DNA of 64,000 nt from a virus. Location: the IMG/VR virus record IMGVR_UViG_3300032020_000845, positions 32,001 through 96,000 of that record, one strand, 5' to 3'. The position numbers were made by a program, and so were the translations under genes. The notes under the pieces were generated by a model, which searched no databases, was not told where the DNA came from, and was given only the letters and a program-made list of their open reading frames with translations. Positions 36,309 through 63,997 of the stretch are shown here, piece after piece. Every line of letters starts with the position of its first letter. The first letter of the stretch is position 1.

Positions 36309-36699
36309 TTGGATTGACAAACAAATAGAACAAAAAATAAAAGAGCAAAAGGATTTGTTAACTAGCTTTTCTGAGCAGTCGCGTGATATTATTTTACAAG
36401 ATGACGAATTATTGAGTGCAATGGCAAAACAAAGAGTTCTTTTATTAAGACAGAATAGGAAACCAATTGCAATTTTTATTAGTGAAAAAACCTTTGATAT
36501 GATTATATCGAAGATAGCTATTCCTATTATTTATGATAAAATTTATAGTTCAATAGAAAAGATAAAGGAAGGCAGGATTCCAGTGACCGATATTGCAAAA
36601 ATACCTGTTTATGTTAATCCTTTATTGAAAGATGCTATGTTATTTGTTGTAGGCGCAATAGTTTGGAAAAGTTTTAATAATGGAGAAGAAAATGGATAA
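36286..36699 (+). CDS. hypothetical protein
   Basis: ORF with GGAGG RBS. Confidence 0.55.
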   Translation: MRIPIISNWIDKQIEQKIKEQKDLLTSFSEQSRDIILQDDELLSAMAKQRVLLLRQNRKPIAIFISEKTFDMIISKIAIPIIYDKIYSSIEKIKEGRIPVTDIAKIPVYVNPLLKDAMLFVVGAIVWKSFNNGEENG

Positions 36700-38095
36700 C
36701 AGTAGGAAAGACAGAAAGCTTGTAGATTCTTTTTTAATTGAGTATGAAGAAGTACTTAAAAGAGTAAAGAATGAAGATAATATAGAAAGGGAAGTAGCTA
36801 AGTTTTTGGGTATTTCTGTTGAAAAACTTTTTCAAATAAGTCAGAACTATCCAAAATTTAAATTGCCTTTTATATGTTCTTCCCTTCCAAAAATATTACA
36901 AGAAAAAGGTTTTGAAATTGCCTCTGTAGTTTTTTGTACTTATCATGGTATTAGAAGTGCTACACGGCAATTGGTTGAAATCGATCTTGATAAAACTGTT
37001 GAAGTCGTTACTTTGGGTCAATACTTCGTAACAAAAAAAGATGAAAAGTTTGTTGTTTCAGTAGATTTTGAAAGCAATATGTTTGTGGGTTGGATTTATG
37101 TTTATTCAAATGAAAAAAATAAGGAAGGGGCTTCTCAAGTTATTACCGATTTGGATTTATGGCTCCAACAGAACAATTTTCTAAAAGGAAAAAAAATTAC
37201 TTCTTTTGGGAAATTTTTGAAATTAAAAAAATATAGTTGGGAAGATATAATTTTTTCGGAACAATTAGAGACAGAAATAAAACGAAATATTGAGAAATAT
37301 TTATTAAATTTTAAAATATATTGTGAGAATGGTCTCCCAACGAAACGGGGAATTTTATTAGCGGGTCCTCCAGGTATAGGTAAAACTCTTTTAGGAAAAG
37401 TTTTAGCATCTACAATTAAGAACACTACTTTTATTTGGGTTACTCCTAAAAGTTATAATCCTAATCACGATTATATTAATATGTTATTTGACTTGGCAAT
37501 AGAAACCGCTCCTACTATATTATTTATGGAAGATGTTGATTTTTATGGTACAAGCAGATCTAATGGAAATAATTCATTTGTTCTTGGGGAATTTTTAAAT
37601 AAAGTTGATGGTCTTGTAGAAAATGAGGGTGTTTTAATTATAATGACTACAAATTATCCAGAACTGCTTGACAAAGCTATAAAAGAGAGGCCAGGAAGAT
37701 TTGATAGATTAATAACAATCCCTTTTCCTGAAAGTAAGGAACGTTTGAAAATGCTTAAACGTTTTTGTAAAGATTTAAGGGTCTTTCCTAATGTAGATTG
37801 GGAAAGTATTGTAGTTTCCACTGATAGATTTACTGGAGCCTTTTTGAAAGAGCTTGTTATAACGGCAGCGGGCCTTGCTATCGATGAAGGTTCTTTAAAT
37901 AAAGATGGAAAAGTTATTTTGAAACAAGAGTATTTTGATTCTGCTATTAAAATTTTGAAAGAATATAGTGAAATGCAAACAAAAAAGACTGTAGGATTTG
38001 GGAATACTCAAGATTCTGAAGAACTTTGTGAAGAAGCCGTATACCCAACTGAAAAGGGTGATTTTTATAAAATGGATACTGGAGAAATAGAATGA
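36692..38095 (+). CDS. AAA+ ATPase (FtsH/CDC48-type module, no protease domain)
   Basis: GPPGIGKT, FMEDVD, TTNYPELLDKAIKERPGRFD. Confidence 0.9.
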   Translation: MDNSRKDRKLVDSFLIEYEEVLKRVKNEDNIEREVAKFLGISVEKLFQISQNYPKFKLPFICSSLPKILQEKGFEIASVVFCTYHGIRSATRQLVEIDLDKTVEVVTLGQYFVTKKDEKFVVSVDFESNMFVGWIYVYSNEKNKEGASQVITDLDLWLQQNNFLKGKKITSFGKFLKLKKYSWEDIIFSEQLETEIKRNIEKYLLNFKIYCENGLPTKRGILLAGPPGIGKTLLGKVLASTIKNTTFIWVTPKSYNPNHDYINMLFDLAIETAPTILFMEDVDFYGTSRSNGNNSFVLGEFLNKVDGLVENEGVLIIMTTNYPELLDKAIKERPGRFDRLITIPFPESKERLKMLKRFCKDLRVFPNVDWESIVVSTDRFTGAFLKELVITAAGLAIDEGSLNKDGKVILKQEYFDSAIKILKEYSEMQTKKTVGFGNTQDSEELCEEAVYPTEKGDFYKMDTGEIE

Positions 38096-41567: not shown

Positions 41568-44500
41568 ATGTTAATTCCAAAAGAACCAGAAAAAAATAAA
41601 AAAACACACAAAAAGTGGTTTAAGGCAGAGAAGCTAAAAAAAGTTGCTAAGAAAGAATCGTTGCCTCAAGAAAAGGAAGACTTAATAAGAAAACATGGAC
41701 AATCAAATATGAAAGAAACTGTTCTTTCATACGCTTGCACAAATTGTAAACATTCCTTTAGTGCTAATAGTTTAAGAAAAGAAATTATTGAGTCTGCAAA
41801 AAAAGGAAGCACTCTTGTTTATTGCCCAAAATGTGGTCTATTTCTTGTTGCAGATCGTAAAACAAAGATTCCTTCTAAACTTGGTTCAAAAATAAACAGG
41901 AACGCTGATCTAACTGCTATATATCCCAATCAAGGAATAGTTCCAGGCTATGTGCCTAATACTTGGGTTGATCGTGCTTTACTTGAAAAAATTTGTCACG
42001 AACTAGGAAAATATGCCGAATCAGTAGGTATGTTTAATCCTCAATTAAAATTTCAAAGAGGCATTCGAGGAAAAGTTCGTGAAGGTTCTCCTCAAAATGT
42101 GAAATACGCGGAGTATACAATAGAGTCTGTGGATAATTATGATGTTAGATTTCGTGTTATTGCTACTGCTGGAATTACTCCTATCGGAAAAGTAATAATT
42201 TCTAATGTGTTTAGAACCTTGGACGGTAGAGAAATATCGTTCACACAAGAAGGAGTTGAAGGTTTTGTATCAGGTAAAGTTTATGGTTCTCCAGACGTTA
42301 AACCTGTTGTTCCTCAAATTTATTACAAAGAGCGTGATCCTTCGAGGTTTAGAGAAATAGTTGCTTCAAAGAAAACCGCTTTTGTGAAAGGTATTGATGA
42401 TATTCCTAATATGGAGTTTTCAGAAATGAAAAGAAAAGTTATGGAAAGGTTAAAACGAAAGTATCCAGAATTCAAAATTTCAGATCTTGATGCTTATTCA
42501 GATAATACTATTGACGGGATGAGAGATCATTGGACTGATTTTGGCAATCCTCGTATGACTGTTCAAGATTGGTTTGAAAATGTTGTGGATACGATCGATG
42601 CTGATTTAGAGGAGGAGGCTAGTCAGTTTATTACTAGAAAAAAAACAGCAGCAGGTGTTCCTATTCCTGGTCAACAAATTGAATATCAAGGAAAGATATA
42701 TACAGTTGATACTGTTGTTGGAGATACTTCTATATTAAAAGATGAAACAGGATTACAAACAGCTCCGGTTCCTAATTTAGAGTTAAATATTCAACAAGGA
42801 GGTTCTGGTTTAGCAGCTCCTGCTGCTCCTATTACAGCTCCAGTTGCTAAAAAGATTGAAGAAATTGTTAAAAGAGGATTAAGGGATGAAAAAACTTTAG
42901 TTCCATTTACTGAATCGGATCCTGATTATAGTGTTGCAAAACAAACTGATGTTGATCCAGATTTTAGTACTCCTTATGAGAAATCTGACCAAGGGATTCT
43001 TGAGGAAAAGGATAGAGCTGTTCAGCAAATGTTTAGAGGAGGAACTTCAGTAAGACCTACTAAATCTGCTGCAGAGATAAGATGGCAAAGAGTGAAGGAT
43101 GAGTTTTATGATACAGTAGAACAAGATACTGGTCCTTGGGTTTTGAAAACCCTTTCTCTTGAATCATATGTGGATGTACCAAAACATTGGCTAGATGCTT
43201 TGAGAAAAGATCCAGAAGGCCTTTCTCAAAATTTTGTTTCACATTGGGCTGAGAAACATAGTTATACGTTGCGAGACGATGAAAAACGAGAACTTCAAAA
43301 ATTATTTGTAGATTGGGTGTTTGAATTTGAGACTGAAAAAGAAGCTTCTCTAACCAAAACTGCTCCTGAAAAAGCTGACCTTGAAAGTATGGTTCAAAAA
43401 TGTATGAGAGACAAAGGATGGGAACATGCTAAGTGTATGAATTATGTTGCTGGAGGTGTTTGGCATAGAAAAGGGAAAGTAGATGGACTACATCCCGGAA
43501 TGCATGGCCACACAAAAGATGGCTATAAATTTGTTATTCTTGATGTTCAGGGAAATGAAATTCAAGTTGACCAAGAAAATATAAGTGGTTCTTTTTGGAC
43601 TGACCGAAATGAATGGGAAGGAAAAGAAAGTCCTCAATATGTTGAAAAATCATTGGAACCAGGAATGTATGGAAATACAAAAGATGGTTATAAATTTGTT
43701 ATTCTTGATGTTGAAGGAGATACAATTCAAGTTGACCAAGAAAATATAAGTGGTTCTTTTTGGATTGGTAGAAACGAGTGGGAGAAAAAAGAAGCTCCTC
43801 ACTATCTCCAATATGTTGGAAAACCATTGGAGGAGGAAGAGGGAGAAAAGGAAGCTTCAATAAAGAAAATAGCTGAACCAACAGGTTATCACGAAACGGA
43901 TGAAACAGGAAAACAAATTGAACTTTCTCGTTTAAGAACACTTGTTGAGGATTATTATAGAGCAGGACAATTTCCCCCAGATTTTGATTATACTAAAGTA
44001 ATGTCAGAGGTTTCTCGAATGACAAGAAAACAACTATTAGATATTCTTGACAAAAAACTTAAAGATACTCATTATCCTGTTGTTCATGCGAAGAAGAAAA
44101 CAGCTGTTAGAACAAATATGTTATGTGTTGATAGTGAAGGAGAAAAGATTCAGTTTAAAAAATTGGAAGATGTTTTTAATGATTTAGATGATAGATTTTT
44201 ATCAAATATATACGATGAATTGGAGTGGCTTCCTTTGGATTCGAGAAAACTTAAAGAGGTATTAAAACTACTTGGATATTCTCGTATTACTAATAATGAT
44301 ATACAACAGTTATTACAATGGATAAAAGAAGAATCTCCAGAATGGTTTATGACTCTTGAAGAATATAAAAAAGTAGCGGAAGGATTTATTCAAGAAAGTC
44401 TGAAAAAAGTTGCTTCAACAAAAACAGCAGCTACAGTAGATGAGATTAATGAGATTCTTCAAAAAAACTATGGAATAACTTTTTCTATATATAGTAGAAG

Positions 44501-45749
44501 GATGAAATCCCTTCTAGACAGAATCCTCAAAGATAAAGGTTTTCCAATAGAAGAGTCGATAGATTCTTGGATGAAAGAAACTGATGGAGGAAAGCTAATT
44601 GTTGGATCAAAAGGTAAATCATCTAACCAAATAGTTCAAGAAATTCGAAAAGCAGATCTTACTGAAAAGGATATTAAAAAACAAATTAAAGATGAAGAAG
44701 AAGGCGAAGAAACTTATAATGAAATGGCAACGGAAGTTGTATGTCCAAAAGCAGAAAAAGCTTTAGAAGATATGGCTGATGATGAAGCGGCTCACGCAGA
44801 AAAGTTAGAGGAAATTGTTTTACCTGCTGTTGAAGAAGAAGAAGAGGATACTGAGAAAGAAGCTTCAATAAAAACAGCAGTTGAGTATGATAGTTGGGAT
44901 AGTGAGGAATTAGATAATGGATGGACAGTTATTGGTGATCAAAGAAGTGATGATTCTGACTATAAACTTGTACGAGTTAGGGATACGGAAACTGCAAGTC
45001 ATTATAAAACTCTTGCTAAAGGGTATAATGTTCTAGATTTTGAAGAGTATGTAGAAGAAGTTAAAAAGTGGCCTCCACCTTCATTTACAAAAAAGAAAAC
45101 AGCTCAAGAAGAAGTAGAAGAAGAAAAACCAAAAACAGAATATAAAGAATTAAAAACAAAACCACACAAACCAGAGTTGGAAGTAGAAGAAGAAGCTATT
45201 GTTGCAACTCCAGAAATGCAAAAAACTTTTCACGAAATACAGAACCATAAGCAAAGGTTGACAGAAATTAAAGCTCTTATAGAGGAATCTCGACGTAAGG
45301 TGGAAGAGGAAATTCGTAAAATTCAGGAGGAACACGGAGCGATTAAGGAAGCGTCAGATGTGCAGGAGGGGATCGAAAAGTTAGCTGCTCTTGTTGAACA
45401 AGCTGAAACTCAAATAGTTGACCTTGGAGAATTTTTTGCACATTTAGATACATCTATAAAGGAGAAAAAATTTAAGCCTTCAGATGCGTGGAGAGTCCAA
45501 AAGTTATTGGAAAAATTTGGAAAGGAGGCGGAAACTTATTTAGATAAGGCTGAAAAGGGATCTAATTCTTTAAATACTGAAGTGAAACAACGTATTCTTA
45601 CAGTATTTCCAAAACGTGAAGGATCTATTGAAAAGGAAGCTACTGTTTTTGATGCTATAAGAGAACTTGGAGAAAATCTTTGGTCATATGTTAAGTCTTT
45701 AAGTGAAATTTCAGCAGAAGGAGAACAATTGGAATTAGTTCTGGAATAA
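41568..45749 (+). CDS. giant modular protein 2 with recurring EKEAS..KTA linkers
   Basis: 1393 aa; zinc ribbon, 55-aa tandem duplication, ferritin-like ExxH segment, coiled coil. Confidence 0.8.
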   Translation: MLIPKEPEKNKKTHKKWFKAEKLKKVAKKESLPQEKEDLIRKHGQSNMKETVLSYACTNCKHSFSANSLRKEIIESAKKGSTLVYCPKCGLFLVADRKTKIPSKLGSKINRNADLTAIYPNQGIVPGYVPNTWVDRALLEKICHELGKYAESVGMFNPQLKFQRGIRGKVREGSPQNVKYAEYTIESVDNYDVRFRVIATAGITPIGKVIISNVFRTLDGREISFTQEGVEGFVSGKVYGSPDVKPVVPQIYYKERDPSRFREIVASKKTAFVKGIDDIPNMEFSEMKRKVMERLKRKYPEFKISDLDAYSDNTIDGMRDHWTDFGNPRMTVQDWFENVVDTIDADLEEEASQFITRKKTAAGVPIPGQQIEYQGKIYTVDTVVGDTSILKDETGLQTAPVPNLELNIQQGGSGLAAPAAPITAPVAKKIEEIVKRGLRDEKTLVPFTESDPDYSVAKQTDVDPDFSTPYEKSDQGILEEKDRAVQQMFRGGTSVRPTKSAAEIRWQRVKDEFYDTVEQDTGPWVLKTLSLESYVDVPKHWLDALRKDPEGLSQNFVSHWAEKHSYTLRDDEKRELQKLFVDWVFEFETEKEASLTKTAPEKADLESMVQKCMRDKGWEHAKCMNYVAGGVWHRKGKVDGLHPGMHGHTKDGYKFVILDVQGNEIQVDQENISGSFWTDRNEWEGKESPQYVEKSLEPGMYGNTKDGYKFVILDVEGDTIQVDQENISGSFWIGRNEWEKKEAPHYLQYVGKPLEEEEGEKEASIKKIAEPTGYHETDETGKQIELSRLRTLVEDYYRAGQFPPDFDYTKVMSEVSRMTRKQLLDILDKKLKDTHYPVVHAKKKTAVRTNMLCVDSEGEKIQFKKLEDVFNDLDDRFLSNIYDELEWLPLDSRKLKEVLKLLGYSRITNNDIQQLLQWIKEESPEWFMTLEEYKKVAEGFIQESLKKVASTKTAATVDEINEILQKNYGITFSIYSRRMKSLLDRILKDKGFPIEESIDSWMKETDGGKLIVGSKGKSSNQIVQEIRKADLTEKDIKKQIKDEEEGEETYNEMATEVVCPKAEKALEDMADDEAAHAEKLEEIVLPAVEEEEEDTEKEASIKTAVEYDSWDSEELDNGWTVIGDQRSDDSDYKLVRVRDTETASHYKTLAKGYNVLDFEEYVEEVKKWPPPSFTKKKTAQEEVEEEKPKTEYKELKTKPHKPELEVEEEAIVATPEMQKTFHEIQNHKQRLTEIKALIEESRRKVEEEIRKIQEEHGAIKEASDVQEGIEKLAALVEQAETQIVDLGEFFAHLDTSIKEKKFKPSDAWRVQKLLEKFGKEAETYLDKAEKGSNSLNTEVKQRILTVFPKREGSIEKEATVFDAIRELGENLWSYVKSLSEISAEGEQLELVLE
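43488..43830 (+). repeat. 165-bp (55-aa) tandem duplication within giant protein 2
   Basis: PGMxGxTKDGYKFVILDVxGxxIQVDQENISGSFW twice, starting at 43488 and 43653. Confidence 0.9.
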
Positions 45750-51317: not shown

Positions 51318-54300
51318 ATGATAAAATTAGGTAGTGAACCGAATTGGGTTTTTGCAGATCTTGATTTGATTTCTGAATTACTGGTTGAAAATAATATTCC
51401 TATTGAACATCCAAATTACGAAAAATACAAAGATTATATATTAGGCAAGTTTGAAGGAACGTGGTTTGTTTCTCCAGAGGAAATGGAAAAGGCAGTTCTT
51501 CAATATATTCCAAAAACAGCTTCTTTAAATTTTCGAAAAACAGCTGAACCTGAAACCCTTCAAGAAAATTTCTACGAACCAGGAAAGTCCGATGAATATC
51601 CAAAAGGACCTAAAAAACCTCGCTTACGCTTTCCATTTTATAATTATCCAGATGATCAAGGAAATATAATTAACATAAAACCTGATATTTCTAATCCAAT
51701 GGAATATGATACAACTCCAGGACCTCATCCTCAAGGACCTGGAATATGTGGAAGTTTAAGTATGAAAAAGAGAGCACAATCTAAAGGTCTTCTTACCTAT
51801 AAAAAGCTTACGGATATTATGATGGTAGTGAAAGATCTTCAGCAGGTTGACTCTTTAGACTCTGACGAGGTTGAAGACCTTGCTGAAAATCTATATAATA
51901 TTTTTGGAAATGATATATTGTCGGGAGCAATCTTAGCGGCGCATGAAGATAAAGCTTCTAGGTTTATACAAATGATAGGAGAGTATTTAGCTTTATCAAC
52001 GAAAATAGGGTTGAAACCTTTAACTAAAGAGCTTTTAGAGAGTTTGATTAAGGTTTGCCAAGATCCAAGTAACCCAAAACATCAGATAAAGAAAGTTCCT
52101 TTGGAAGATGTTTTTGAACCTAAGAAAGAAGAAGATGAATTTGAGGAAACTGAAGAAGAGATAGGTGAAAGATGGAAAGAAAAAGAAAAACAGATTCTAC
52201 CTGAAAAAAAAGAACTCTCTCCAGAAACAATGGAAGTTCCCTATACCTTTCTACGAGACAAATACACTGAAGATGAAATATGGGATATAGCTAGAGGTAG
52301 AAAAACTGATGTATCTCCAGAAGAAATAGAAATGGCTAAATTTGTAATTGAGAGAGGTATTGTAGCCGGTAGATTGGGAATGAGAAAAACTTCAACAACT
52401 GTTTCTGAACCAACTCCTGATGAATCATTACATGAACAACAAGGAGAACATCCAGGGCATACTTATTTTCAAGGAAGAGATGAATGGGAAGATAAAGAAC
52501 CTGATCAGGGGTTTGATATATTATTTCCAGAGAAGGTAAGAATAAAAAGGGATCCTTGGCTTTTTGAAGATAATCCAGTATCTGAAATGACTGCAAGTAG
52601 ATTAAATATGAGAAAGAAAGCTTATATTAATTTAGATAATTTAAAAAGATTATATGAAGGACAATTAAAACATCTTGGAGTTTATGATAGAGAATTAATG
52701 GAAGAAGTTAGAACAGATTTATTAGTAAATTTAGAGAATTTGATAAAAAGTACATTTAAAAAGTATAAAGGTTGGGAAGAAGAAGATATTCCAGCGGATC
52801 TTGAAGTTATTCAAGAATATGTTGATGGTTTAAAACAATCGCTAAAAAAAGATTCAGATTTAATGGTAATGATTGATTCGACAGTGAATGTTATACATCA
52901 TTTTTTTGAGGATCATGGAGAACATTATTTGCTTTCTGAGATAGTTAATCCTAGACAAATTGAAAGGGCAGAAGAATTACTTGCTACTATTTTTTCGCAA
53001 GTTAGTGAAAAATTGGAAGAAAAAGAAGAAAAACCAAAACCTTCCATACCTAAAAAAGTTCCTTTTGTTGATAAACGAGGTAATCCTCTTAAAATAAATG
53101 ATATTGTATTTGCAAAAGATGAAGGATATTTTGGTAAATATGGAAGAATTGTATCCGTTGATCCTGAACCAATATATCTTTCTGATTTAGAAAAGTGGAC
53201 TTATTCTATGTATGTAGAAACTACAGTAACAGAAGAAATGTTGGCAACTGAAGTAGTGTTAAGTAATGATATTGATAAGGATTCTATTGCGGTTGAGGCT
53301 ACTAATCATATTCTTCAATTGGTAAAGAAAAAAGCATTTGATGTGAACAGTGCTTTTGATGTAATATTAGATGAATTGTATATTGTTCTTGATCAAGAAA
53401 TGATTCAGAAAATTAAAAATAATTTATATGATGAAGGGATAGATATAGAAAAAGAAGCTAAAAAATTATTGAGTGTAAGAAAAAATAATTCAACTTTTCA
53501 ATTAAGTATACGAAAGAAAGCAATTATTTCTCCATTGCAACTAAAAAAGTTGTATGAATTAGAATTGTTATATAGAAAAGGAAATTTTGGTATTGAAGAG
53601 CAACTCGACAAATTATCAGAATATATAGTAAAAGAATTAATAGAGTTTTTAAATGATTGGTTACAATTTTATATTGCTGAGGAAGGACTAAATGAAGAAG
53701 CAAAAGCAGCAACAAATAGATTAGAATCTTGTAAACAAGAACTCGAGAATGCTTTTGATATCGATTCAAAAATAGTTGCAATAGATACTACTATAAATAC
53801 AATGCATGTTGATTATGATGTCTTTGAACATTTAATTATGACATTTGAAGAATATGCAGAAAGGGAATTTAGATCAAATAGAAAAGAGATACAAAAACAC
53901 TATCAAGTATGGGATTCTTTGAAGACTTTTCTTCAGGAACAGGGTAAACTTACTGAAAGAATTTTTGAAAATAGATTAAATATGAGAAAAATAGCTCTTG
54001 ATCCTTTAACTCAAAGAGAATTATTACAAACTGGAATATTATTTCCATCTCCGGAATTTATAGAAAAAATGAACCTAAAAAAGGAAAAAGATAAAGAAGA
54101 ACAAAAAGATAAATATAGAAGTTTTCAAAAACCTTTTGAACTAAAACATGAAAAAGGTTTAAAAGAAACTATACGAAAGAATATTGAGGAACAATTTATT
54201 ATACCTCAACAACTAAAACTTCGATTTGACAAATTTGCGCAGGAATCCCCTAGAACCTTGGGGCCTCAAATAACAAAACAAAAAATAAGAAGATTATATG

Positions 54301-55757
54301 AACAAGAAGCTAAAGGTATTTATGATGAAGAATTACTGGATGAAATTATTTCAGGATTTTTAGTAACTTTAGAAAGTTGGGTTAATTTTGAAGAATACAA
54401 AATAAAGTATCTTTTGCAATATGTAACTGATGATAGTTATGATCTAATTAGAGAAGCAGAAGATTTAATTCAACCTTTACACTCAGCAACAACTCCACAA
54501 GAGAAAATGATTGCAATAGATACTGTAATAAATATTGTTCATCAAACGGGAAAATATGGAGAGTATTTGATAAAAGGAATAGACCCTGGAGATTTATCCT
54601 TTTTTGATGACCTAAGTAATTTGAAAGTTAGTAGTTTAAGTTTAAAAAGAATTGCTCAAATTACAGAAGTTAACATTGGAGATGAAGTAGAATTTGACAC
54701 TACTCGTTATTTTCGAGTTGGTAGAAGTAAACAAGGAGGAGTTTTAAAAGGTAAAGGAATTGTTAGAACGAAGAATGAGGATGGTTCATATGATATTGAG
54801 ATAACAGAAATAACTAATGCTCATATAGATATTGCTCATATATTTAAACCTGGGCGTACTACTCCCTTTTTGGTAGATGAAATAAAAGCATTTGTAAAAC
54901 CAAAATTTGAGCCTAAAAAAGAAATTCCAACTCCTGTCGAGGAGCCTAAAATTGAAAAACCTAAAGAAGTAAAAGTTGAACCAGAGAAAGTTCCTGTTGA
55001 AAAGCCTATTATTTTTGAGTTAGCAGAACCAGAAGAAGAAGAAATTCCAATACCTGTTGAAGAGTTTGGAGAACCTGAACCAAAAAAACTAAAGAAAAAA
55101 TTTCCAACTTGGAAAGAATTGGGGCAAATTGTTTGGGAGTCTTTTAAAAGACCTGTGACAAGACCTTTTGGTAGTATATTAAATATGAGAAAAGCTAATA
55201 AAATATCAGGCCGAAAACTCCTGTCTGTAGGCTTATGGGCTATTTATAATGGAGAGATATATAGTAAATTAGAAGATGTGAATAAATACGAGGGACATGA
55301 AAATTGGTTTGTAGAATTAGGTTTACCTGTGAAAGGAACAGAATACGATTATATTACTCGTGGTATTTATAGACCAGATAGAATAGTATGGTATGAAGGT
55401 ACTGGAACTTTTGAAGAATTTTCTGATAATATTGAAGAGTTAAGAAAAAAGTTAGAATTACCGGAGAATGTTAAAATTGAATCTGCCCCGGGTTTCTCAG
55501 AAATAAAAAAAGCTGAATTAGATATGAGAAAATCAGATATACAAAAAGATGTTCCTATTGAAAGTGCTTCTCCTATATTTAAACCTGAAGATACAATTAA
55601 GAATAAATCAATGGAAGAAGCTACATACAAAGTAATGGAATATGATCCAAAGGTTGATGAATATTTAATTGTTGGTGGTGTTAAAGATAGAATAATAAGA
55701 GTAGATCGAAAAACATTGGAAAATATTTGTGACTTAGTTGAGGGGGAGGGGAAATGA
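51318..55757 (+). CDS. giant modular protein 3 with recurring L-x-M-R-K-x-A linkers
   Basis: 1479 aa; about 11 linker motifs; repeated helical and WAIYNG modules. Confidence 0.82.
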   Translation: MIKLGSEPNWVFADLDLISELLVENNIPIEHPNYEKYKDYILGKFEGTWFVSPEEMEKAVLQYIPKTASLNFRKTAEPETLQENFYEPGKSDEYPKGPKKPRLRFPFYNYPDDQGNIINIKPDISNPMEYDTTPGPHPQGPGICGSLSMKKRAQSKGLLTYKKLTDIMMVVKDLQQVDSLDSDEVEDLAENLYNIFGNDILSGAILAAHEDKASRFIQMIGEYLALSTKIGLKPLTKELLESLIKVCQDPSNPKHQIKKVPLEDVFEPKKEEDEFEETEEEIGERWKEKEKQILPEKKELSPETMEVPYTFLRDKYTEDEIWDIARGRKTDVSPEEIEMAKFVIERGIVAGRLGMRKTSTTVSEPTPDESLHEQQGEHPGHTYFQGRDEWEDKEPDQGFDILFPEKVRIKRDPWLFEDNPVSEMTASRLNMRKKAYINLDNLKRLYEGQLKHLGVYDRELMEEVRTDLLVNLENLIKSTFKKYKGWEEEDIPADLEVIQEYVDGLKQSLKKDSDLMVMIDSTVNVIHHFFEDHGEHYLLSEIVNPRQIERAEELLATIFSQVSEKLEEKEEKPKPSIPKKVPFVDKRGNPLKINDIVFAKDEGYFGKYGRIVSVDPEPIYLSDLEKWTYSMYVETTVTEEMLATEVVLSNDIDKDSIAVEATNHILQLVKKKAFDVNSAFDVILDELYIVLDQEMIQKIKNNLYDEGIDIEKEAKKLLSVRKNNSTFQLSIRKKAIISPLQLKKLYELELLYRKGNFGIEEQLDKLSEYIVKELIEFLNDWLQFYIAEEGLNEEAKAATNRLESCKQELENAFDIDSKIVAIDTTINTMHVDYDVFEHLIMTFEEYAEREFRSNRKEIQKHYQVWDSLKTFLQEQGKLTERIFENRLNMRKIALDPLTQRELLQTGILFPSPEFIEKMNLKKEKDKEEQKDKYRSFQKPFELKHEKGLKETIRKNIEEQFIIPQQLKLRFDKFAQESPRTLGPQITKQKIRRLYEQEAKGIYDEELLDEIISGFLVTLESWVNFEEYKIKYLLQYVTDDSYDLIREAEDLIQPLHSATTPQEKMIAIDTVINIVHQTGKYGEYLIKGIDPGDLSFFDDLSNLKVSSLSLKRIAQITEVNIGDEVEFDTTRYFRVGRSKQGGVLKGKGIVRTKNEDGSYDIEITEITNAHIDIAHIFKPGRTTPFLVDEIKAFVKPKFEPKKEIPTPVEEPKIEKPKEVKVEPEKVPVEKPIIFELAEPEEEEIPIPVEEFGEPEPKKLKKKFPTWKELGQIVWESFKRPVTRPFGSILNMRKANKISGRKLLSVGLWAIYNGEIYSKLEDVNKYEGHENWFVELGLPVKGTEYDYITRGIYRPDRIVWYEGTGTFEEFSDNIEELRKKLELPENVKIESAPGFSEIKKAELDMRKSDIQKDVPIESASPIFKPEDTIKNKSMEEATYKVMEYDPKVDEYLIVGGVKDRIIRVDRKTLENICDLVEGEGK

Positions 55758-58700
55758 CTTTATTTATGAGAAAGAAAGCAGGGATTGAAACTCATGAATA
55801 TAGATTTAAACAATTTCACAACCATAAAATTCCAGCATATACTTTTATTGGATATCAAGAAATTCCTTCTGGTGGGAAAATGTTGATGTTTAATTGTAAT
55901 ATTTGTGAGAGTACCTTAATGTTATTTCCAGAAGAAGTTAAAGCTAATATAGATAGAATTTCTGGTTTGCTAGATGATTGGGAACAAGTTGTTAGTAACA
56001 TAAAAAAGGCTAATGAATTTACATCCATAGAAAAAGAATTTGTATTAAAATTTGTAAAAGAATTTGAAAGGATGAATGACGCTAAAGAAATTTATGAGGA
56101 ATTAGTTAGTGATACATTTATGTTTGAACTGACAAATCATTTGGAAGAGGATTTAGGCATTTCAAAAGAGGATAGCAATGATTTTGCTCTTGCTATTTAT
56201 AATCGATTATATTCGGATTATCGTGTATTTACAGAAGTTCCTTTTCAAAGTGTTGGAAGTTTAAGGTTTGAGAATATAAAGAAAAATATAGATAAAGTAA
56301 AAATTTCCACAAAATATAGAGGTCCTGTTGTATCAATTTTAGAAAGTATTGCTCCGGCAGTTTGGAGTGCTTCTGGTTTAAAAGAGGCAAAAGATATAAT
56401 TATAAGTACAGTTTCAGGTTCTCATATTGATGAAGATGATAAACAAAAGATTTTAAATAATGTTGATAAAATTAACAATTTATTAGAATTGCAAAAGTAT
56501 ATTGCAAACTCAATTTTGTTTTATGAAGGAATGGGGACAAAGTTAAGTATGCGAAAGAGATCTCAAATAGATAAACAACTATTTTTTGACTTTTATGGAG
56601 TATCTTTACTGTCAGATAATTACTTAGAACAAAATCCTTACGCAAAACAATATAGAAATATGATTGTACAAAGTATAAAAGATGTTTATGTTCCTCTGAT
56701 TACTAAAATGGTTTATAGTGAACTTAGAAAACATACTGATCGCATGTATAATTGGGAGGATTGGATAGAAGAATTTAATCTTAAAAATGTCAATAGTCTT
56801 ACTTTAGAACAACTAGCTCAAATATATAATGAAGGAGTCTGGGTAACAGAATATGGTGGTCCCTCTTGGGGGTCTATTGTTGAATCTCTAATTCAACTTA
56901 AAAATACTTCTGATACTAATCAACTCATAACTGTTATAGATCATATCAATGATATTGAACACAATACTGGTTTAATGTTTCACGATTTTCCGAAAGTCAA
57001 AAAGTGGTTTTCTGATGCTTTAGAAACTAAAGCTCAAGCAACTCCTGAACAACTTATACCTTATCTTTCTTCTGATTTACAAAAATTAGTTATAGAAGAT
57101 TTAAGATTAAAAGGAAAAGAAATTATATCTCCCGAAAAATATATTACAAGAGATGAAAAATTTGAACTTGCCCAAAATCCATCAACTCCTCCAGAAATCT
57201 TAGCTGAATTAGCAAAAGATAAAGATGAATTTGTTCGTATAAATGTTGCAGGAAATCCAGAAACACCTCCAGAAATCTTAGTAGAATTAGCGAAAGATAT
57301 AGATAAGTATGTTCGTATACGGGTGGCTTATAATCCCAATACCCCTCCCGAATCATTAGTGGAATTAGCTAAAGATGAAGATGAAGAGGTTCGTTTGTAT
57401 ATTAAAAGAAATCCTTCTACTCCTCCTGAAACTTTAGCAGAATTATCAAAAAATACATTAGAGTGGGAGCGTCCTGAAATAAAAGAAGAAGAAAGCTTTA
57501 ACTTAAGTATGAGAAAAACATCAATTTCGGACCAAGAAATTATTAACAATACTATTTTCTATTTCACAAAAGAAAGAATAGATTTACCGAAAACTGAAAC
57601 ATATATTTATGATTATCTTCTAAATCAACATCCAGAATTAAGTTCTTGGGAAATAGAAAGACTTACACAAAAAGTATTAAATATTTTACCCAAACCAGTT
57701 TTAACAAAAGTTCATAAAACAGCAAAAGTGTTTACTATGGGAACTCCAGATACTTTTGAATCTGGGTGGGCAATATATCAAGGAAACATTTATATAAATT
57801 ATGGTAGGGAGGAACACCATTCTCAATGGTTTGAAAAATTTGGTCTTCCTACTTCAGGAAAGGCTTTTGACGAGTTAGTTCGAGGGTATTCTGAAGGCGG
57901 AAGAATTGTTTGGTATGGAACTGGAGATTATAATGAGTTTGCAGATTATTTACCAGAATTAGTAAATGCTTTAGGAATATCAGATCCTACTATACAAATG
58001 ATTGATTATACAACACAAGAATTTAAAACTTTAGCAATGAAAAAGGAAACATCTATCCTCGATTACCCACATAAATATTTAGATTCTGAAATATGGGATT
58101 TGTCAACTGATCCTCCAAAACTAAAAAAAGATATTAAAAGTTTTATTATGAATCGTTTTATTGATTACTTGGTAAAAGAAGGATTAAATAGTCCAGAATT
58201 GTGGTGTAAGGAATTTTACTATACAGGGTCAACTGCTACACATCAATATCAAAAATCTTCTGATATAGATATTCATATAAGAGTCGATTGGGAAGCATAT
58301 AAAAAAACTAATCTAGATAAAGCAAAAGAAGATGCTGAAGAAATGCGTAAAGATTTGTTAAAAGTGTTTTGGAATACTTTAAACAAAGAATATCTACCTG
58401 GAACTTCACACCTTCTTACATATTATATATTGTCTGAATGGGAAGATGTAATGACACAAACGGAAGAAGCATATGATATACAAAAAGATGTTTGGATTGT
58501 TCCTCCTCAAAAAATACCTGAAACATATGACACAGAACAAAAAATAGATTTACTACAAGAACAAGCAAACTACATTATGGAAAAATTAGATGTGGAATTA
58601 GGTAAAACAAAAAGAGATTTTGTTGACTATAAGGTTTTAAAAGAGCTATTAGGTTCTTACGAAGGAAACAAAGCAGATATTCAAAGATTAGTAGAAGAAA

Positions 58701-61375
58701 AGTTAAAGAAAGTTGAACAAGATTTAAAACAATTACAAGAAGAGAATATAAAAATTCATGAAGAAAGGAACAAGGCTTTTTATGACGGTCAAGAACCGAT
58801 TGAAGAAGGATTAAGTAAAAACTGGACTCCGGGAAATATTATTTTTAAGTTAATTGAGAGATACAAATATATAGACATATTGAGAAAAATTAAGCAAATA
58901 ATTAAGGATGAAAAAATTACTGGGGAGGAAGAAAAAGAATTAGAAGATATTTTGGAACCGAAATTAAGTGCTGAATTATCAACACTTTGGGCAATTTATA
59001 ATGGTACTATTTATATTGGGAAACAACTTGGGCTTCTAACACATTCAACTTGGTTTGAAGAAATAGGTCTTCCAAGTAGTGGTTATGAATTTGATAAAGC
59101 TGCTCGCGGTTATTATCTTCCTGATCCAAATATTATTTATTGTTATGAAAATATTGAATCTTGGAATGAATTAATTGATAATTTACCTAAATTAGTAGAA
59201 AAATTGCAAGCAGATTTAAATACTTTAAAAATTTATTTTGCTAAAGAAAATGATATTCCAAGAGTACTTAAATACAAAGACCTTTTTGTAAATGCTTCAA
59301 AATTAAGTATGAAGAAAGCTAAAATTTTTCCAGGAGGTTTATGGGCTATTTATAATGGAAAGATATATACTACTGACGAAGAAGATGAGCATGATAAATG
59401 GTTCGAAGATATAGGGTTGCCTTCATATGGTGAAGAATATGATAGTATTACTCGGGGTGATTATGATTCAACAGGGATATTATGGAATTTTGATACTGGT
59501 ACTTTTGAAGAATTTTCAGATAATCTTCCGAAATTATTAAAAATATTGGGGTTACCTAGTACCACTAATGTTATGGTTCCAAAATTAAGTATGAGAAAAG
59601 AGACTTCAGTTCCAAATCTAATTCTTGAACAATTAGATTATCCTCATTCTTGGCCTCAAAAAAAGAGAGACGATAAAAAGGAGAAAGATGAATCTATTGG
59701 TTTTGGTATATTTCAAGGGGACTATGATGAACTTTATGATGTTCTTGATTCTATTAGGGAAGAAATTGCAAACAACTTATGTATGAGAAAGACAGCACAA
59801 GATATTTCTGATCCTAATAAATTATCAATACAAGAACTTAAACAATTCTATGAATTAGAATTACAAGGATTACTTACTAATGAATTTGTGGATAATGTTC
59901 TTACTAAACTAATTTATGGACTGCAAATAGAAAAAGAAAGAGTATCAAAAGATCCTGAAATTACGGGATATGTAAAAAAAGATTTTATAGCAATAGCGGA
60001 TTTTTATATTAATGAGTTAGAAAAGGTTGCTACAAAAAGTTTAAACAAAAAAATTATTGAAATTGATCAAACAATACAAGCATTACACTTATCTTATGGG
60101 TTTGGAGTATTTCAAGGCGATCCAGATGAAATTTGGGAAACCCTTGATTTTATTGGAGAAACAGTTTGGACTAAATCTAAACCTTTAGAGTCAAATATTA
60201 GTTTGAATATGAAAAAGACAGCTGATCTTTCTGCTGCTCCTGCAATTTCTGATATGGAAGTTCCTGAAAATTGGGGAGTGCAAGATAAAACAAATATAAA
60301 ATTAAGACGAAAGAATCCTCCGAGACATGACAAGAATGATTCAATTGTGGAACAGAATATAGTTGATCCTCATATTGATATGGCTTCATTAAATATGAGA
60401 AAGAAAATAGGTCAGGAAAAGGAAGAAGGAATTCTGCCAAAACCTCAAGTTACAAAACAAGACTTAATAAAATTATATACTCAAGAAGCAAAAGGTATTT
60501 ACGACGAAGAACTAATGAATGAAGTTATTTCAAAATTTATACAAACTTTAGAAGAATGTGAAGAATTTTGGGGTGCTTGGATGCAAAAATTCGGAAAGAC
60601 TTTAATTTTAACATTACTACAAGCAAGAACTCCTCAAGAAAAAATGATTGCAATAGATAGAGTAATAAGTACCGTTCATGTCGATGGTGTATTTGGAGAA
60701 TATTTAATAATAGATGTAATTGGTGATAATTCCTTTTTTGATGAATTGCATAATTTAAAAATTAGTTCTTTGAATTTTAGAAAAAAAGCAAAAGAAACTA
60801 ATCTTGACAAAATTGACGAATATCTTTTTGAATTACTTGATGAAGTAAGTGATGGAACAGGTAAAGAAGAAATTACAATTGACGGAGAAACTTACTTAAT
60901 TCATTATGAAGGATGGAGTTCAGGATGTTTTCCTGAAAATTTGCCAGAAAAAGAATGGGAAGATTATGCTGCTGAACAATCAAACAAAGTTATTGACGAG
61001 TGGAAAGAAGAAGAAAAAAATAGATGGGACATAATTCCAGAATTGTCTGGGTACATTAGTGGAGGATTATATGGAAGGACATATACAGTTTTTCATTTGA
61101 AAAATAAAAAAGCAAATGTATTTTATAATAGAGAGAAAAAGGGATTTGAAGGACAACCAACAGACAAAAATTATTACAGCCCTTCTTTACTTTTACGAGA
61201 AGATTATGGAACTCCTGGACTTCCTTCAGAACCGGCAAAAGCAGAAGTAGCTGATTTAGGAGAAGACCAATGGGGAGAAAGTAATAAACTAAAGAAGAAA
61301 AAACTTAAAGAGTTAGAATTTCCAGATTTTAATATTCCTTACGGAGTGGAAGGTGGCGACATAAAACAAATTTAG
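55754..61375 (+). CDS. giant modular protein 4 with L-x-M-R-K linkers, LRV/HEAT-like repeats and a Pol-beta-type nucleotidyltransferase domain
   Basis: 1873 aa; about 10 linkers; NPxTPPExLxELAKD repeats; YTGSTA...SDIDIH. Confidence 0.82.
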   Translation: MTLFMRKKAGIETHEYRFKQFHNHKIPAYTFIGYQEIPSGGKMLMFNCNICESTLMLFPEEVKANIDRISGLLDDWEQVVSNIKKANEFTSIEKEFVLKFVKEFERMNDAKEIYEELVSDTFMFELTNHLEEDLGISKEDSNDFALAIYNRLYSDYRVFTEVPFQSVGSLRFENIKKNIDKVKISTKYRGPVVSILESIAPAVWSASGLKEAKDIIISTVSGSHIDEDDKQKILNNVDKINNLLELQKYIANSILFYEGMGTKLSMRKRSQIDKQLFFDFYGVSLLSDNYLEQNPYAKQYRNMIVQSIKDVYVPLITKMVYSELRKHTDRMYNWEDWIEEFNLKNVNSLTLEQLAQIYNEGVWVTEYGGPSWGSIVESLIQLKNTSDTNQLITVIDHINDIEHNTGLMFHDFPKVKKWFSDALETKAQATPEQLIPYLSSDLQKLVIEDLRLKGKEIISPEKYITRDEKFELAQNPSTPPEILAELAKDKDEFVRINVAGNPETPPEILVELAKDIDKYVRIRVAYNPNTPPESLVELAKDEDEEVRLYIKRNPSTPPETLAELSKNTLEWERPEIKEEESFNLSMRKTSISDQEIINNTIFYFTKERIDLPKTETYIYDYLLNQHPELSSWEIERLTQKVLNILPKPVLTKVHKTAKVFTMGTPDTFESGWAIYQGNIYINYGREEHHSQWFEKFGLPTSGKAFDELVRGYSEGGRIVWYGTGDYNEFADYLPELVNALGISDPTIQMIDYTTQEFKTLAMKKETSILDYPHKYLDSEIWDLSTDPPKLKKDIKSFIMNRFIDYLVKEGLNSPELWCKEFYYTGSTATHQYQKSSDIDIHIRVDWEAYKKTNLDKAKEDAEEMRKDLLKVFWNTLNKEYLPGTSHLLTYYILSEWEDVMTQTEEAYDIQKDVWIVPPQKIPETYDTEQKIDLLQEQANYIMEKLDVELGKTKRDFVDYKVLKELLGSYEGNKADIQRLVEEKLKKVEQDLKQLQEENIKIHEERNKAFYDGQEPIEEGLSKNWTPGNIIFKLIERYKYIDILRKIKQIIKDEKITGEEEKELEDILEPKLSAELSTLWAIYNGTIYIGKQLGLLTHSTWFEEIGLPSSGYEFDKAARGYYLPDPNIIYCYENIESWNELIDNLPKLVEKLQADLNTLKIYFAKENDIPRVLKYKDLFVNASKLSMKKAKIFPGGLWAIYNGKIYTTDEEDEHDKWFEDIGLPSYGEEYDSITRGDYDSTGILWNFDTGTFEEFSDNLPKLLKILGLPSTTNVMVPKLSMRKETSVPNLILEQLDYPHSWPQKKRDDKKEKDESIGFGIFQGDYDELYDVLDSIREEIANNLCMRKTAQDISDPNKLSIQELKQFYELELQGLLTNEFVDNVLTKLIYGLQIEKERVSKDPEITGYVKKDFIAIADFYINELEKVATKSLNKKIIEIDQTIQALHLSYGFGVFQGDPDEIWETLDFIGETVWTKSKPLESNISLNMKKTADLSAAPAISDMEVPENWGVQDKTNIKLRRKNPPRHDKNDSIVEQNIVDPHIDMASLNMRKKIGQEKEEGILPKPQVTKQDLIKLYTQEAKGIYDEELMNEVISKFIQTLEECEEFWGAWMQKFGKTLILTLLQARTPQEKMIAIDRVISTVHVDGVFGEYLIIDVIGDNSFFDELHNLKISSLNFRKKAKETNLDKIDEYLFELLDEVSDGTGKEEITIDGETYLIHYEGWSSGCFPENLPEKEWEDYAAEQSNKVIDEWKEEEKNRWDIIPELSGYISGGLYGRTYTVFHLKNKKANVFYNREKKGFEGQPTDKNYYSPSLLLREDYGTPGLPSEPAKAEVADLGEDQWGESNKLKKKKLKELEFPDFNIPYGVEGGDIKQI
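57160..57450 (+). repeat. four ~24-aa LRV/HEAT-like repeats
   Basis: NPSTPPEILAELAKD, NPETPPEILVELAKD, NPNTPPESLVELAKD, NPSTPPETLAELSK. Confidence 0.88.
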
Positions 61376-63088: not shown

Positions 63089-63997
63089 ATGGCAAATAAA
63101 CATATTGAAATAAAACACAAAGAAATTTTATATCCTTCTGTGCTTGTTAAAACTTCAAAGGCGGGAGGAAGCGGAACTGTAGTTTATTCCAAACCTATTA
63201 GTAAAGGTTCAGAAGAGTATGAAACTTATGTTTTAACAAATTGGCATGTGGTGGAGGCTGCTATTGCTGTAAAACGAGAATGGGATCCATTACTTTCGAA
63301 AGATGTTAAAAAGGAAACGAGAGCAACTGTTACCGTAGAGTTTTATAGGTATAAAAATCTTAGCTGTAACATTGGAAGAACTGCAGTAGAAGCGGATATT
63401 GTTGCCTATGATAAAGATCAAGACATTGCTTTAGTTAAACTAAGATCCGCGGAACCTGTAAAATATGTAGCACGATTACATCCAAAAGATGTTAAAAATA
63501 TTCACATTTTTGATACTGTATATATTTGTGGGTGCAGTTTAGGGCATTCTCCTATTCCTACTAATGGAGAAATTACTTCAATGGATGATGAAATTGATAA
63601 TTACAAATATTGGATGAGTAATGGACAAATTATATACGGTAATTCAGGTGGAGGAGTTTACCTTGTTAAAACTATTATAGTTGACGCCCAAAAAGAAAAA
63701 GAAGAAGAGTTTTTCGAATTCATAGGGATTCCAAGTAGAATTGAAGTTATTGGTTGGGGAGATAGTATAACGCACATGGGGTATTTTATTCCAATTGGTA
63801 GAATTTATGATTGGCTGGAGGAGGAGATGTTTCAGTTCATTTTTGACTCTAAATTTACTTCAACGCAATGCGAAAAAATGAGAGATAAAAGAAAAGAGGA
63901 GGCCCGTAAAGCATTTGAAAGGCGTGAAAGAAAAGCTGAAGAAGATTCTGGTTTAGATGAAATAGAAAATAAAGAAGAAGATGAAAATGAAGAATAA
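63089..63997 (+). CDS. trypsin-like (S1) serine protease
   Basis: GSG, LTNWHVV (His), DIALV (Asp), GNSGGG (Ser); no signal peptide; acidic C-terminal tail. Confidence 0.9.
   Translation: MANKHIEIKHKEILYPSVLVKTSKAGGSGTVVYSKPISKGSEEYETYVLTNWHVVEAAIAVKREWDPLLSKDVKKETRATVTVEFYRYKNLSCNIGRTAVEADIVAYDKDQDIALVKLRSAEPVKYVARLHPKDVKNIHIFDTVYICGCSLGHSPIPTNGEITSMDDEIDNYKYWMSNGQIIYGNSGGGVYLVKTIIVDAQKEKEEEFFEFIGIPSRIEVIGWGDSITHMGYFIPIGRIYDWLEEEMFQFIFDSKFTSTQCEKMRDKRKEEARKAFERRERKAEEDSGLDEIENKEEDENEE

Follow-up and report, generated by a model that had tools for sequence, protein, structure and literature searches.

Why would a virus repeat one short peptide some twenty times through two adjacent giant proteins? 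The question is raised by a 64,000-nucleotide stretch of viral DNA (hereafter the window), which corresponds to bases 32001-96000 of a single virus contig of 106,979 bases and ~31% G+C (IMG/VR record IMGVR_UViG_3300032020_000845). Two genes on its plus strand encode polyprotein B1 (giant protein 3, P0001, 1479 amino acids (aa); 51318..55757) and polyprotein B2 (giant protein 4, P0002, 1873 aa; 55754..61375). A first, sequence-only reading of the window had described in these two proteins about 21 copies of a linker of the form L-[SN]-M-R-K-x-[AS], and had proposed that it marks processing sites and could supply microhomology for the shuffling of modules. On balance we favor, with reserve, the view that a protease, probably a head protease of the type found in Bacillus phage G, recognizes and cuts this motif as a linker in polyproteins of virion cargo.

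The linker and its consensus

Each of the 21 copies was confirmed in place, in the frame of P0001 or P0002, with 11 in B1, which comprises ~12 modules, and 10 in B2. All are on the plus strand, as are all long open reading frames (ORFs) of the 107-kb contig, and no copy was found on the minus strand, where all frames were checked. We scored the copies with a position matrix that was trained on P0005, P0007 and P0008 only, three homologous proteins from other contigs, and that was scanned with a cut-off of 9 bits against the plus-strand ORFs of at least 60 aa on the 107-kb contig. From the N terminus of B1, the copies are LNFRKTA (51525..51545; 17.7 bits), LSMKKRA (51756..51776; 26.0 bits), LGMRKTS (52374..52394; 18.1 bits), which is the exact start of the alignments with the homologues P0005 and P0006, LNMRKKA (52602..52622; 25.8 bits), the degenerate LSVRKNN (53469..53489) followed 11 residues on by LSIRKKA (53502..53522; 11.6 bits), LNMRKIA (53976..53996; 20.0 bits), where the alignments with P0006 and P0007 start, LRFDKFA (54219..54239), a decayed copy whose position matches the B2 linker preceding the helical module, LSLKRIA (54636..54656; 16.2 bits), LNMRKAN (55179..55199; 13.6 bits), and LDMRKSD (55518..55538). 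B2 opens with M-T-LFMRKKA (motif at 55760..55780; 18.1 bits), two residues past its start codon; in P0006 the aligned counterpart of this copy is an internal linker, at residue 1788. It is followed by LSMRKRS (56543..56563; 24.2 bits), LSMRKTS (57503..57523; 15.9 bits), LAMKKET (58031..58051; 12.4 bits), LSMKKAK (59303..59323; 13.2 bits), LSMRKET (59585..59605; 22.5 bits), LCMRKTA (59777..59797; 22.4 bits), LNMKKTA (60203..60223; 16.8 bits), LNMRKKI (60389..60409; 20.3 bits), and LNFRKKA (60770..60790; 26.4 bits).

Eighteen of the 21 copies thus reach 9 bits or more, and those below it are the degenerate LSVRKNN, LRFDKFA and LDMRKSD, the last of which has the strict form L-x-M-[RK]-K all the same. 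This strict form occurs six times in P0001 and nine times in P0002 (15 in total), against an expectation from shuffled proteins of ~0.04 per protein, or ~0.08 for both, and a maximum of 2 in 2000 shuffles. The motif is specific to the polyproteins: in the remainder of the contig the matrix matched only two weak sites, both in the two other giant proteins of the window (A1 and A2, described below).

A logo of 86 non-identical sites from 11 proteins gives the consensus [SK]-L-[SN]-[M>L,F,I]-[RK]-K-[K,T,E]-[A,S]-(Q), with the information confined to positions −1 to +7. The core that had been described from the sequence is therefore seen, within a conserved stretch slightly longer than was claimed. 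Replacements remain inside chemical classes (M/L/F/I, R/K, A/S). The exchange of Met that had been reported is real, with Phe in three copies and Ile, Leu and Val in one copy each, and about one third of the motif copies have Leu, Phe, Ile or Val in place of Met.

Conservation of the peptide, of its DNA and of a possible start codon

The copies also resemble one another as DNA, in agreement with the earlier description. The word TTAARTATGAGAAA is found six times exactly and four times with one mismatch, always in frame in P0001 or P0002, against 0.68 expected. The conserved entity could accordingly be the DNA word itself, serving as microhomology that promotes module shuffling, with the peptide as a by-product. 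These exact and near-exact 14-mers would fit such a role, as would the coming and going of whole module-plus-motif units with alignments that break at motifs (see below) and the codons at the 5′ side of the motif, where Leu is mostly TTA and Ser at position 1 is always AGT (in 8/8 sites here and 14/14 in the relative G001, IMGVR_UViG_3300032046_005540, 168 kb and ~90% complete, against a background of 31-33%). However, only the first six bases of the motif DNA are unusually uniform. The codons for Arg, Lys and Ala show synonymous variation at or above the background rate of these genes, and at the second Lys, AAG is even enriched (10/20 versus a background of 18%), which interrupts runs of A. 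Ser at position −1 has mixed codons. The lack of TCN codons at position 1 can be explained by AGT (Ser) and AAT (Asn) being one transition apart, so that the two residues toggle under selection on the peptide and no function at the DNA level is needed. Moreover, the amino acid replacements are chemically conservative, and the sister form of the linker in A1 and A2 retains the peptide core on different DNA. Comparison of synonymous positions thus favors selection at the peptide level, and we regard a primary role of the DNA word as very improbable.

A second possibility is that the motif is an internal translation start (M-R-K...) or a functionless relic of the N termini of formerly separate genes. 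M-R-K-K does resemble a typical N terminus, ATG is present in two thirds of the copies, and some genes do start shortly ahead of a motif. Yet a Shine-Dalgarno-like sequence precedes just 1 of 14 motif ATGs, compared with 72 of 103 gene starts (70%) and 7% of ordinary in-frame ATGs, and a third of the copies have no Met. Conservation reaches upstream of the Met, into [SK]-L-[SN], and the genes that open with a motif begin 2-5 codons ahead of the conserved Leu, not at the Met. The Shine-Dalgarno counts and the Met replacements lead us to reject internal initiation, and a relic would not persist at ~100 sites across several genomes, so that this pair of explanations is hardly credible. Together with the synonymous Arg, Lys and Ala codons, these observations bear out the original suggestion that selection acts on the peptide and not on a start codon.

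Linkers at the borders of shuffled modules

B1 and B2 consist of ~22 small modules of 60-420 aa each, mostly unrelated to one another and joined by flexible spacers. Self-comparison revealed that an alpha/beta module of ~80 residues is present four times and that a helical module, too, recurs several times. The alpha/beta copies, which have diverged, lie at window positions 55170-55517, 57731-58030, 58949-59302 and 59303-59584 and share the pattern W-A-I-Y-x-G ... H-x-x-W-F ... G-L-P ... R-G. When eight copies from this phage and G001 were aligned, a conserved core was seen, separated from the motif by spacers of variable length. AlphaFold, run on this shallow eight-row alignment, predicted the core with a predicted local distance difference test (pLDDT) score of ~90 and both flanking motifs, the copies at 59303 and 59585, with a score below 50. 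In this model, the linker is thus predicted to sit in disordered spacers at module borders.

What the modules do is largely hidden from homology searches, and most of them have no detectable family. Searches of Pfam, PHROGs, NCBIfam, PDB sequences and the ESM Atlas recognized just three features in the polyproteins: LRV repeats, a nucleotidyltransferase domain and a stretch like rubrerythrin. The first two are the only Pfam matches of B2 (residues 470-560 and 818-867, respectively), and B1 had no match in Pfam, PHROG, NCBIfam or PDB sequences. The alpha/beta module showed only a weak gelsolin/ADF-like likeness in fold searches (Foldseek E >= 6e-3, VIA Z <= 5.1), had no match in BFVD at E <= 0.001, and belongs to no sequence family. 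Single-linkage clustering fused nearly all modules and was not used.

Homologues of the polyproteins are few (12 in an index of 5.8 billion proteins and 28 in 1.84 billion representative proteins). No close homologue lacks the motif, which is present in 2-22 copies in the complete proteins, with the order of modules changed. Seven of them (P0005, P0006, P0007, P0008, P0136, P0138 and P0143) have 4-22 copies each, with modules reordered. Alignment ends fall at motifs in 81 of 195 cases, against 25 expected, although the ends are non-independent counts. Whole module-plus-motif units have been gained or lost among genomes; for instance, P0005 and P0006 carry an extra module between modules 1 and 2 of P0001. 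Distant homologues of the helical module that stand alone (P0153, P0154 and P0157) are without the motif, which therefore belongs to the architecture of the chain and not to the fold of a domain. Annotated phage genomes gave no DNA match and three short, domain-level protein matches only. A search of viral contigs with P0002 for related loci found none, and G001 was reached through P0006. P0005 (2830 aa) is deposited within a metagenome-assembled genome labeled 'Candidatus Cloacimonetes bacterium', which is possibly a lead to the host or possibly a binning artefact.

Gene boundaries hug the motif as well. Members of the family begin with MT- (P0002), MKK-, MKNK-, MKKNK- or MLYS- and then the motif, 2-5 residues in, and in two lineages the C termini read -LSMRK-EGSRE and -LSMRK-KGK, 3-5 residues past the motif. 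In G001, the counterpart of P0001 and P0002 is one ORF of 3263 aa, and the gene is split here exactly at a linker. The start of B2 overlaps the stop of B1 (ATGA) and is preceded by a strong GGGGGAGGGG ribosome-binding site. Such boundaries are as expected if all modules need identical processed ends.

For microhomology as an aid to shuffling, raised in the sequence-only reading, the gain and loss of module-plus-motif units, the breaks of alignments at motifs and the identical 14-mers all fit. The same data would, however, arise from the plain survival of recombinants whose joints fall within linkers, and in the 3′ half of the motif, conservation of the DNA does not exceed the demands of the peptide.

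A sister linker in the upstream giants

The motif had been described as a feature of giant proteins 3 and 4, which proved too narrow. Polyproteins A1 (giant protein 1, P0003, 967 aa; 38627..41530, plus strand) and A2 (giant protein 2, P0004, 1393 aa, with the rubrerythrin-like stretch; 41568..45749, plus strand) contain ~18 copies in all of a sister linker, [EV]-A-S-x-K-K-T-A, which shares the core and is retained in the corresponding genes of G001. Of the matches to the common core [RKIST]-K-[TK]-A on the contig, 22 lie in the four giants and 3 in the remaining 24.9 thousand residues. The two forms differ by place: the A-S-x-K-K-T-A chains lie upstream of the large terminase gene, and the L-S-M-R-K-K-A chains downstream of it. 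In addition, as described next, the motif is present in virion-module proteins of relatives.

Motif proteins in the head modules of relatives

Scanning G001 with the B-type matrix matched five further proteins. These are a 1185-aa protein adjoining the portal gene, a 297-aa protein encoded two genes upstream of the head-protease gene with an HNH gene between, the 518-aa protein P0011, encoded in the tail module, the product of a 117-aa ORF ahead of the terminase gene, and, weakly, the portal protein itself. The small protein ahead of the protease has counterparts. In L016, L017 and L019, a small protein with a strong motif is encoded upstream of a 1300-1440-aa protease fusion, adjacent to it in L017 and L019 and one gene further up in L016, and in all three loci as in G001 the full motif stands at residue 52-56.

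In the capsid and protease proteins of the relatives, the resemblance is confined to a short core. Their capsid protein has a conserved N-terminal P-P-G-F-[RSQ]-K-[EKT]-A-P, and in one more distant relative the capsid protein starts right behind this sequence. A junction in their protease protein, W-V-K-V-(K)-K-[TK]-A-A, is conserved as well, and G001 carries an insert of 90 residues there that is flanked by two copies of the junction sequence. For head genes, which the 107-kb contig lacks, the comparison covered relatives and gave a weak portal match in G001 and a core of 4-5 residues in the capsid and protease proteins.

The head genes of G001 are like those of phage G, with a capsid protein 40% identical to gp27 and a protease similar to gp19. 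The head-maturation protease gene matches phrog_18299 at 1e-10, and the enzyme is of the type found in phage G and mycobacteriophages. In phage G itself, the scan gave two weak core-like matches only, near the N termini of gp19 and gp20 (L014, NC_023719, 11902-13315). The first is S-L-G-L-V-K-T-A-A at residues 38-46 of the head protease gp19 (Leu 39), and gp20, the next gene after gp19, begins M-S-K-K-I-S-R-L-K-K-T-A-L. These sequences hint that a site of the K-T-A type may be ancestral to this head-protease family.

Between the structural genes in the head and tail modules of G001 (L005, L012) there are also at least six dispersed genes for free-standing HNH or homing endonucleases, which fits a very mosaic, recombination-prone genome.

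Cleavage or docking

The same 8-mer stands at ~100 joints in several genomes, in spacers predicted to be disordered and at gene ends, and its core is common to capsid and protease proteins. The best explanation is therefore that the motif is the recognition site of one trans-acting factor, likeliest a protease. That the linkers mark processing sites, as first proposed, is the best-supported reading, although cleavage is something that we infer from linker position, shuffled homologues, gene termini and the head-module proteins. We consider it fairly probable that the linker is cut at all. Given that it is, the head protease would be the enzyme we would back, with the HtrA-like protease encoded next to the polyproteins (see below) a doubtful candidate and another or a host enzyme an unlikely one.

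The phage is a large uncultured myophage, with head genes that, to judge from G001, resemble those of phage G. On the model of T4, phiKZ and SPN3US, its giant chains would enter the prohead and be cut at every linker into separate small proteins, probably at or just behind the R-K pair, so that the pieces have uniform ends. The released pieces would enter the host along with the DNA as internal or ejection cargo. Most likely the enzyme would be the head-maturation protease, the gene for which is present in G001, with the HtrA-like protease as the second candidate. The giants are 'beads-on-a-string' polyproteins, and modules that are unrelated and freely shuffled suit the release of independent units.

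The most serious rival is that the motif is never cut and acts as a docking or sorting peptide, a short basic tag flanking each module that ties the intact chain to a single shared partner, such as the scaffold or interior of the prohead, the portal, LRV/HEAT modules of the chains themselves or the AAA+ ATPase encoded upstream. As a conserved 8-mer in disordered sequence, the motif looks like a short linear binding motif, LRV/HEAT repeat modules are present within the same chains, and there is no protease embedded in them. Docking would also explain motifs at the extreme N and C termini, where a cut would free just 2-5 residues. On the other hand, the core near the capsid N terminus and at the junction of the protease protein occupies classic places of maturation cuts, unrelated and freely shuffled modules suit released units, and intact chains of 160-370 kDa would be awkward cargo. 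Furthermore, the known phage precedents for short motifs repeated in head proteins are cut sites (PMC10052503). Docking thus seems to us rather unlikely, while deserving to be taken seriously.

Several points weigh against the reading that we favor. The head module is not on the 107-kb contig, and for this reason the head-protease argument is drawn from relatives. There, the capsid and protease matches are to the core of 4-5 residues and not to the full motif, and P0011 comes from the tail module, where action of a prohead protease is unexpected. Some proteins hold the motif only 3-5 residues from the C terminus, which fits a docking tag equally well. The chains show no match to a peptidase domain in Pfam, PHROGs or NCBIfam. 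An embedded zincin peptidase was considered as well and rejected, since neither HExxH nor HxxEH occurs in any of eight polyproteins. We found no literature report on the specificity of head proteases of the phage G type. Finally, the solved folds closest to the neighboring protease are HtrA-type, and HtrA-type enzymes favor aliphatic P1 residues, not lysine.

If the linkers are cut, four genes would supply ~40 separate small proteins whose function is almost wholly unassigned. A bolder version, which we hold doubtful, is that the phage uses a private 'cleavage code': a basic 8-residue linker in two forms joining ~40 interchangeable effector modules in four polyproteins, which would be loaded into the capsid, cut and injected, with recombination at the linker adding or swapping modules and the two forms sorting the cargo into two classes that could differ, for example, in protease, timing or location. 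Cut linkers would in themselves amount to a modular cargo system for host takeover or anti-defense that gene-by-gene annotation misses, recording it as four 'hypothetical giant proteins'. The motif offers a simple rule for dividing the giants into units, and a handle on the responsible protease and its specificity. Our literature search found no description of such phage polyprotein linkers or of the cleavage motif.

The neighboring protease and ATPase

Downstream of B2 lies the gene for an HtrA/DegP-like serine protease of 302 aa (63089..63997, plus strand; Pfam Trypsin_2 at 7e-13). Its H53, D112 and S186 (in G-N-S-G-G) are invariant among 25 homologues, its AlphaFold model has a pLDDT of 89, and its top Foldseek matches are DegQ, DegP and DegS (E 1e-11 to 1e-10). 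The bit score is far under the NCBIfam cut-off for DegP, and Pfam finds no PDZ domain; the protein ends in a long helix and an acidic tail. A gene for an AAA+ ATPase of the classic clade (36680..38095, plus strand; Pfam AAA and AAA_lid_3) stands at the upstream limit of the polyprotein block. The two genes flank the entire polyprotein and terminase block here, and are ~5 kb apart in L022 and L024, which have no polyprotein. Judging from gene order, they may form a conserved ATPase-protease pair.

It is conceivable that the motif is cut in the cytoplasm by this HtrA-like protease, perhaps assisted by the AAA+ ATPase, and not by a head protease. The enzyme has an intact His-Asp-Ser triad and a confident fold, and its place after polyprotein B and an SbcD-like exonuclease is the same in three genomes, being retained in G001 and L023, probably the contig of a P0007-like protein. 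The AAA+ ATPase and the protease bracket the polyprotein block and are paired in relatives. A soluble protease could reach the tail-module protein P0011, and the hydrophobic third residue of the motif (M/L/F/I) would suit the P1 preference of HtrA-type enzymes. Against this stands the distribution of the enzyme. The protease family is large, with 799 database matches and at least 272 viral loci, whereas the polyprotein family is as rare as noted above, and motif proteins lie within 10 kb at only 2 of the best 80 of these viral loci. In the nearest relatives (L022, L024 and L025), the protease and the AAA+ ATPase are present, and polyprotein and motif are both absent. The protease is thus not specifically coupled to the motif, as its family is large, motif proteins accompany it at 2 of 80 loci and polyprotein-less relatives retain the pair; with 78 of those 80 loci lacking the motif within 10 kb, its standing as a dedicated partner is weakened, and cytoplasmic cleavage by it appears improbable to us. 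In G001, an S49 peptidase gene lies beside that of the HtrA-like protease; it is absent at the matching place in the 107-kb contig.

Genomic setting

The 5′ end of the contig falls within a baseplate-wedge gene, and its further genes include those of a tail-fiber region, glycosyltransferases, a DnaB-like helicase, a family-A DNA polymerase, ThyX and an endolysin. Genes for portal, capsid and head protease were not found on the 107-kb contig, and the genome of the window's phage is therefore incomplete. B1 and B2 are situated downstream of the large terminase gene (window 46950-49952, 1000 aa). This gene is broken by an intein that contains a LAGLIDADG homing endonuclease (Pfam Intein_splicing 9e-18, LAGLIDADG_3 7e-15), and in G001 the portal gene (1066 aa) likewise appears to contain an intein-like insert. 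The neighborhood downstream of B2 (window 61709-63073; L001 3018-4166) includes the SbcD-like metallophosphoesterase exonuclease, encoded between B2 and the protease gene, and genes for an MgtC-family membrane protein and ThyX downstream of the HtrA-like protease gene.

Comparison with known systems

Among known systems, the prohead proteases of large myophages come closest to the cleavage that we favor: T4 gp21 (with IPI-III and Alt as internal proteins that bear a capsid-targeting sequence), phiKZ gp175 and SPN3US gp245 (PMC10052503, PMC5694885). Capsid, portal, protease and ejection proteins of T4, phiKZ and SPN3US are cut at one short motif that ends in Glu; for gp245 of SPN3US, whose substrates include the capsid, the portal and abundant ejection proteins, the motif is A-x-E, and a propeptide is cut several times (PMC10052503). 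The linkers described here may be similar in that one short motif, or in the capsid and protease of the relatives its core of 4-5 residues, recurs across capsid, protease and putative internal or ejected proteins. There are also several sites per protein, the genes lie in or beside the head and packaging module, and the small head-module protein of the relatives carries the motif ~50 residues from its N terminus, like a propeptide. They differ in chemistry, because the motif here is basic (L-S-M-R-K-K-A), whereas the known sites of prohead proteases end in Glu (L/I-x-E, S/A/G-x-E and A-x-E; PMC10052503, PMC5694885); a basic site would be new among phage head proteases. They also differ in architecture. 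The known substrates lose one N-terminal propeptide, while here ~20 unrelated modules have a site at each joint, much like a viral polyprotein.

Polyvalent proteins, known from phages and conjugative elements, are giant multi-domain proteins with shuffled domains; delivery along with the DNA has been suggested for them, as has cleavage into functional units (Iyer, Burroughs, Anand, de Souza, Aravind 2017; PMC5512222). They contain recognizable conflict domains and usually an embedded zincin-like MPTase peptidase; a conserved linker peptide that recurs is not described in that paper, which does not use the word 'linker' (PMC5512222). The chains of the window share with them many unrelated domains in one shuffled chain, with ~22 modules whose order differs in P0005, P0006 and P0007. 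They part from them in having no embedded processing peptidase, given that the eight polyproteins are free of HExxH and HxxEH. Moreover, Pfam found none of the conflict domains, such as ArdC-N, DdrB-ParB, methylases, SNF2 or N4-type RNA polymerase, at E <= 0.1 for B1 and B2 and <= 0.01 for A1 and A2.

Polyproteins made by RNA viruses of eukaryotes offer a further parallel, in which many units per chain are separated by a short consensus site with a dibasic pair and a small residue. The sites of flavivirus NS3, two basic residues followed by a small residue, are read in trans by the viral protease. The difference is that we deal with a DNA phage that has ordinary separate genes and no protease embedded in the chains, so that the likely purpose would be virion loading and not economy of expression. 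As a lead only, there is also a superficial likeness to Prp, which removes a short N-terminal leader (L-N-L-Q-F-F-A / S-K-K) from ribosomal protein L27 and, in Firmicutes phages such as 80alpha, from the capsid and scaffold proteins. Both L-N-L-R-K-K-A and the sister form A-S-K-K-T-A recall this leader, although the central pair of residues is different, the sites here recur within the chains, and no Prp-family gene was found, no search aimed at one having been made. A further counterpart is the set of polyproteins in G001, in which the peptide, the module families and the gene order are identical, and from which the present phage differs in that the chain is divided into two genes at a linker and the contig is without the head module.

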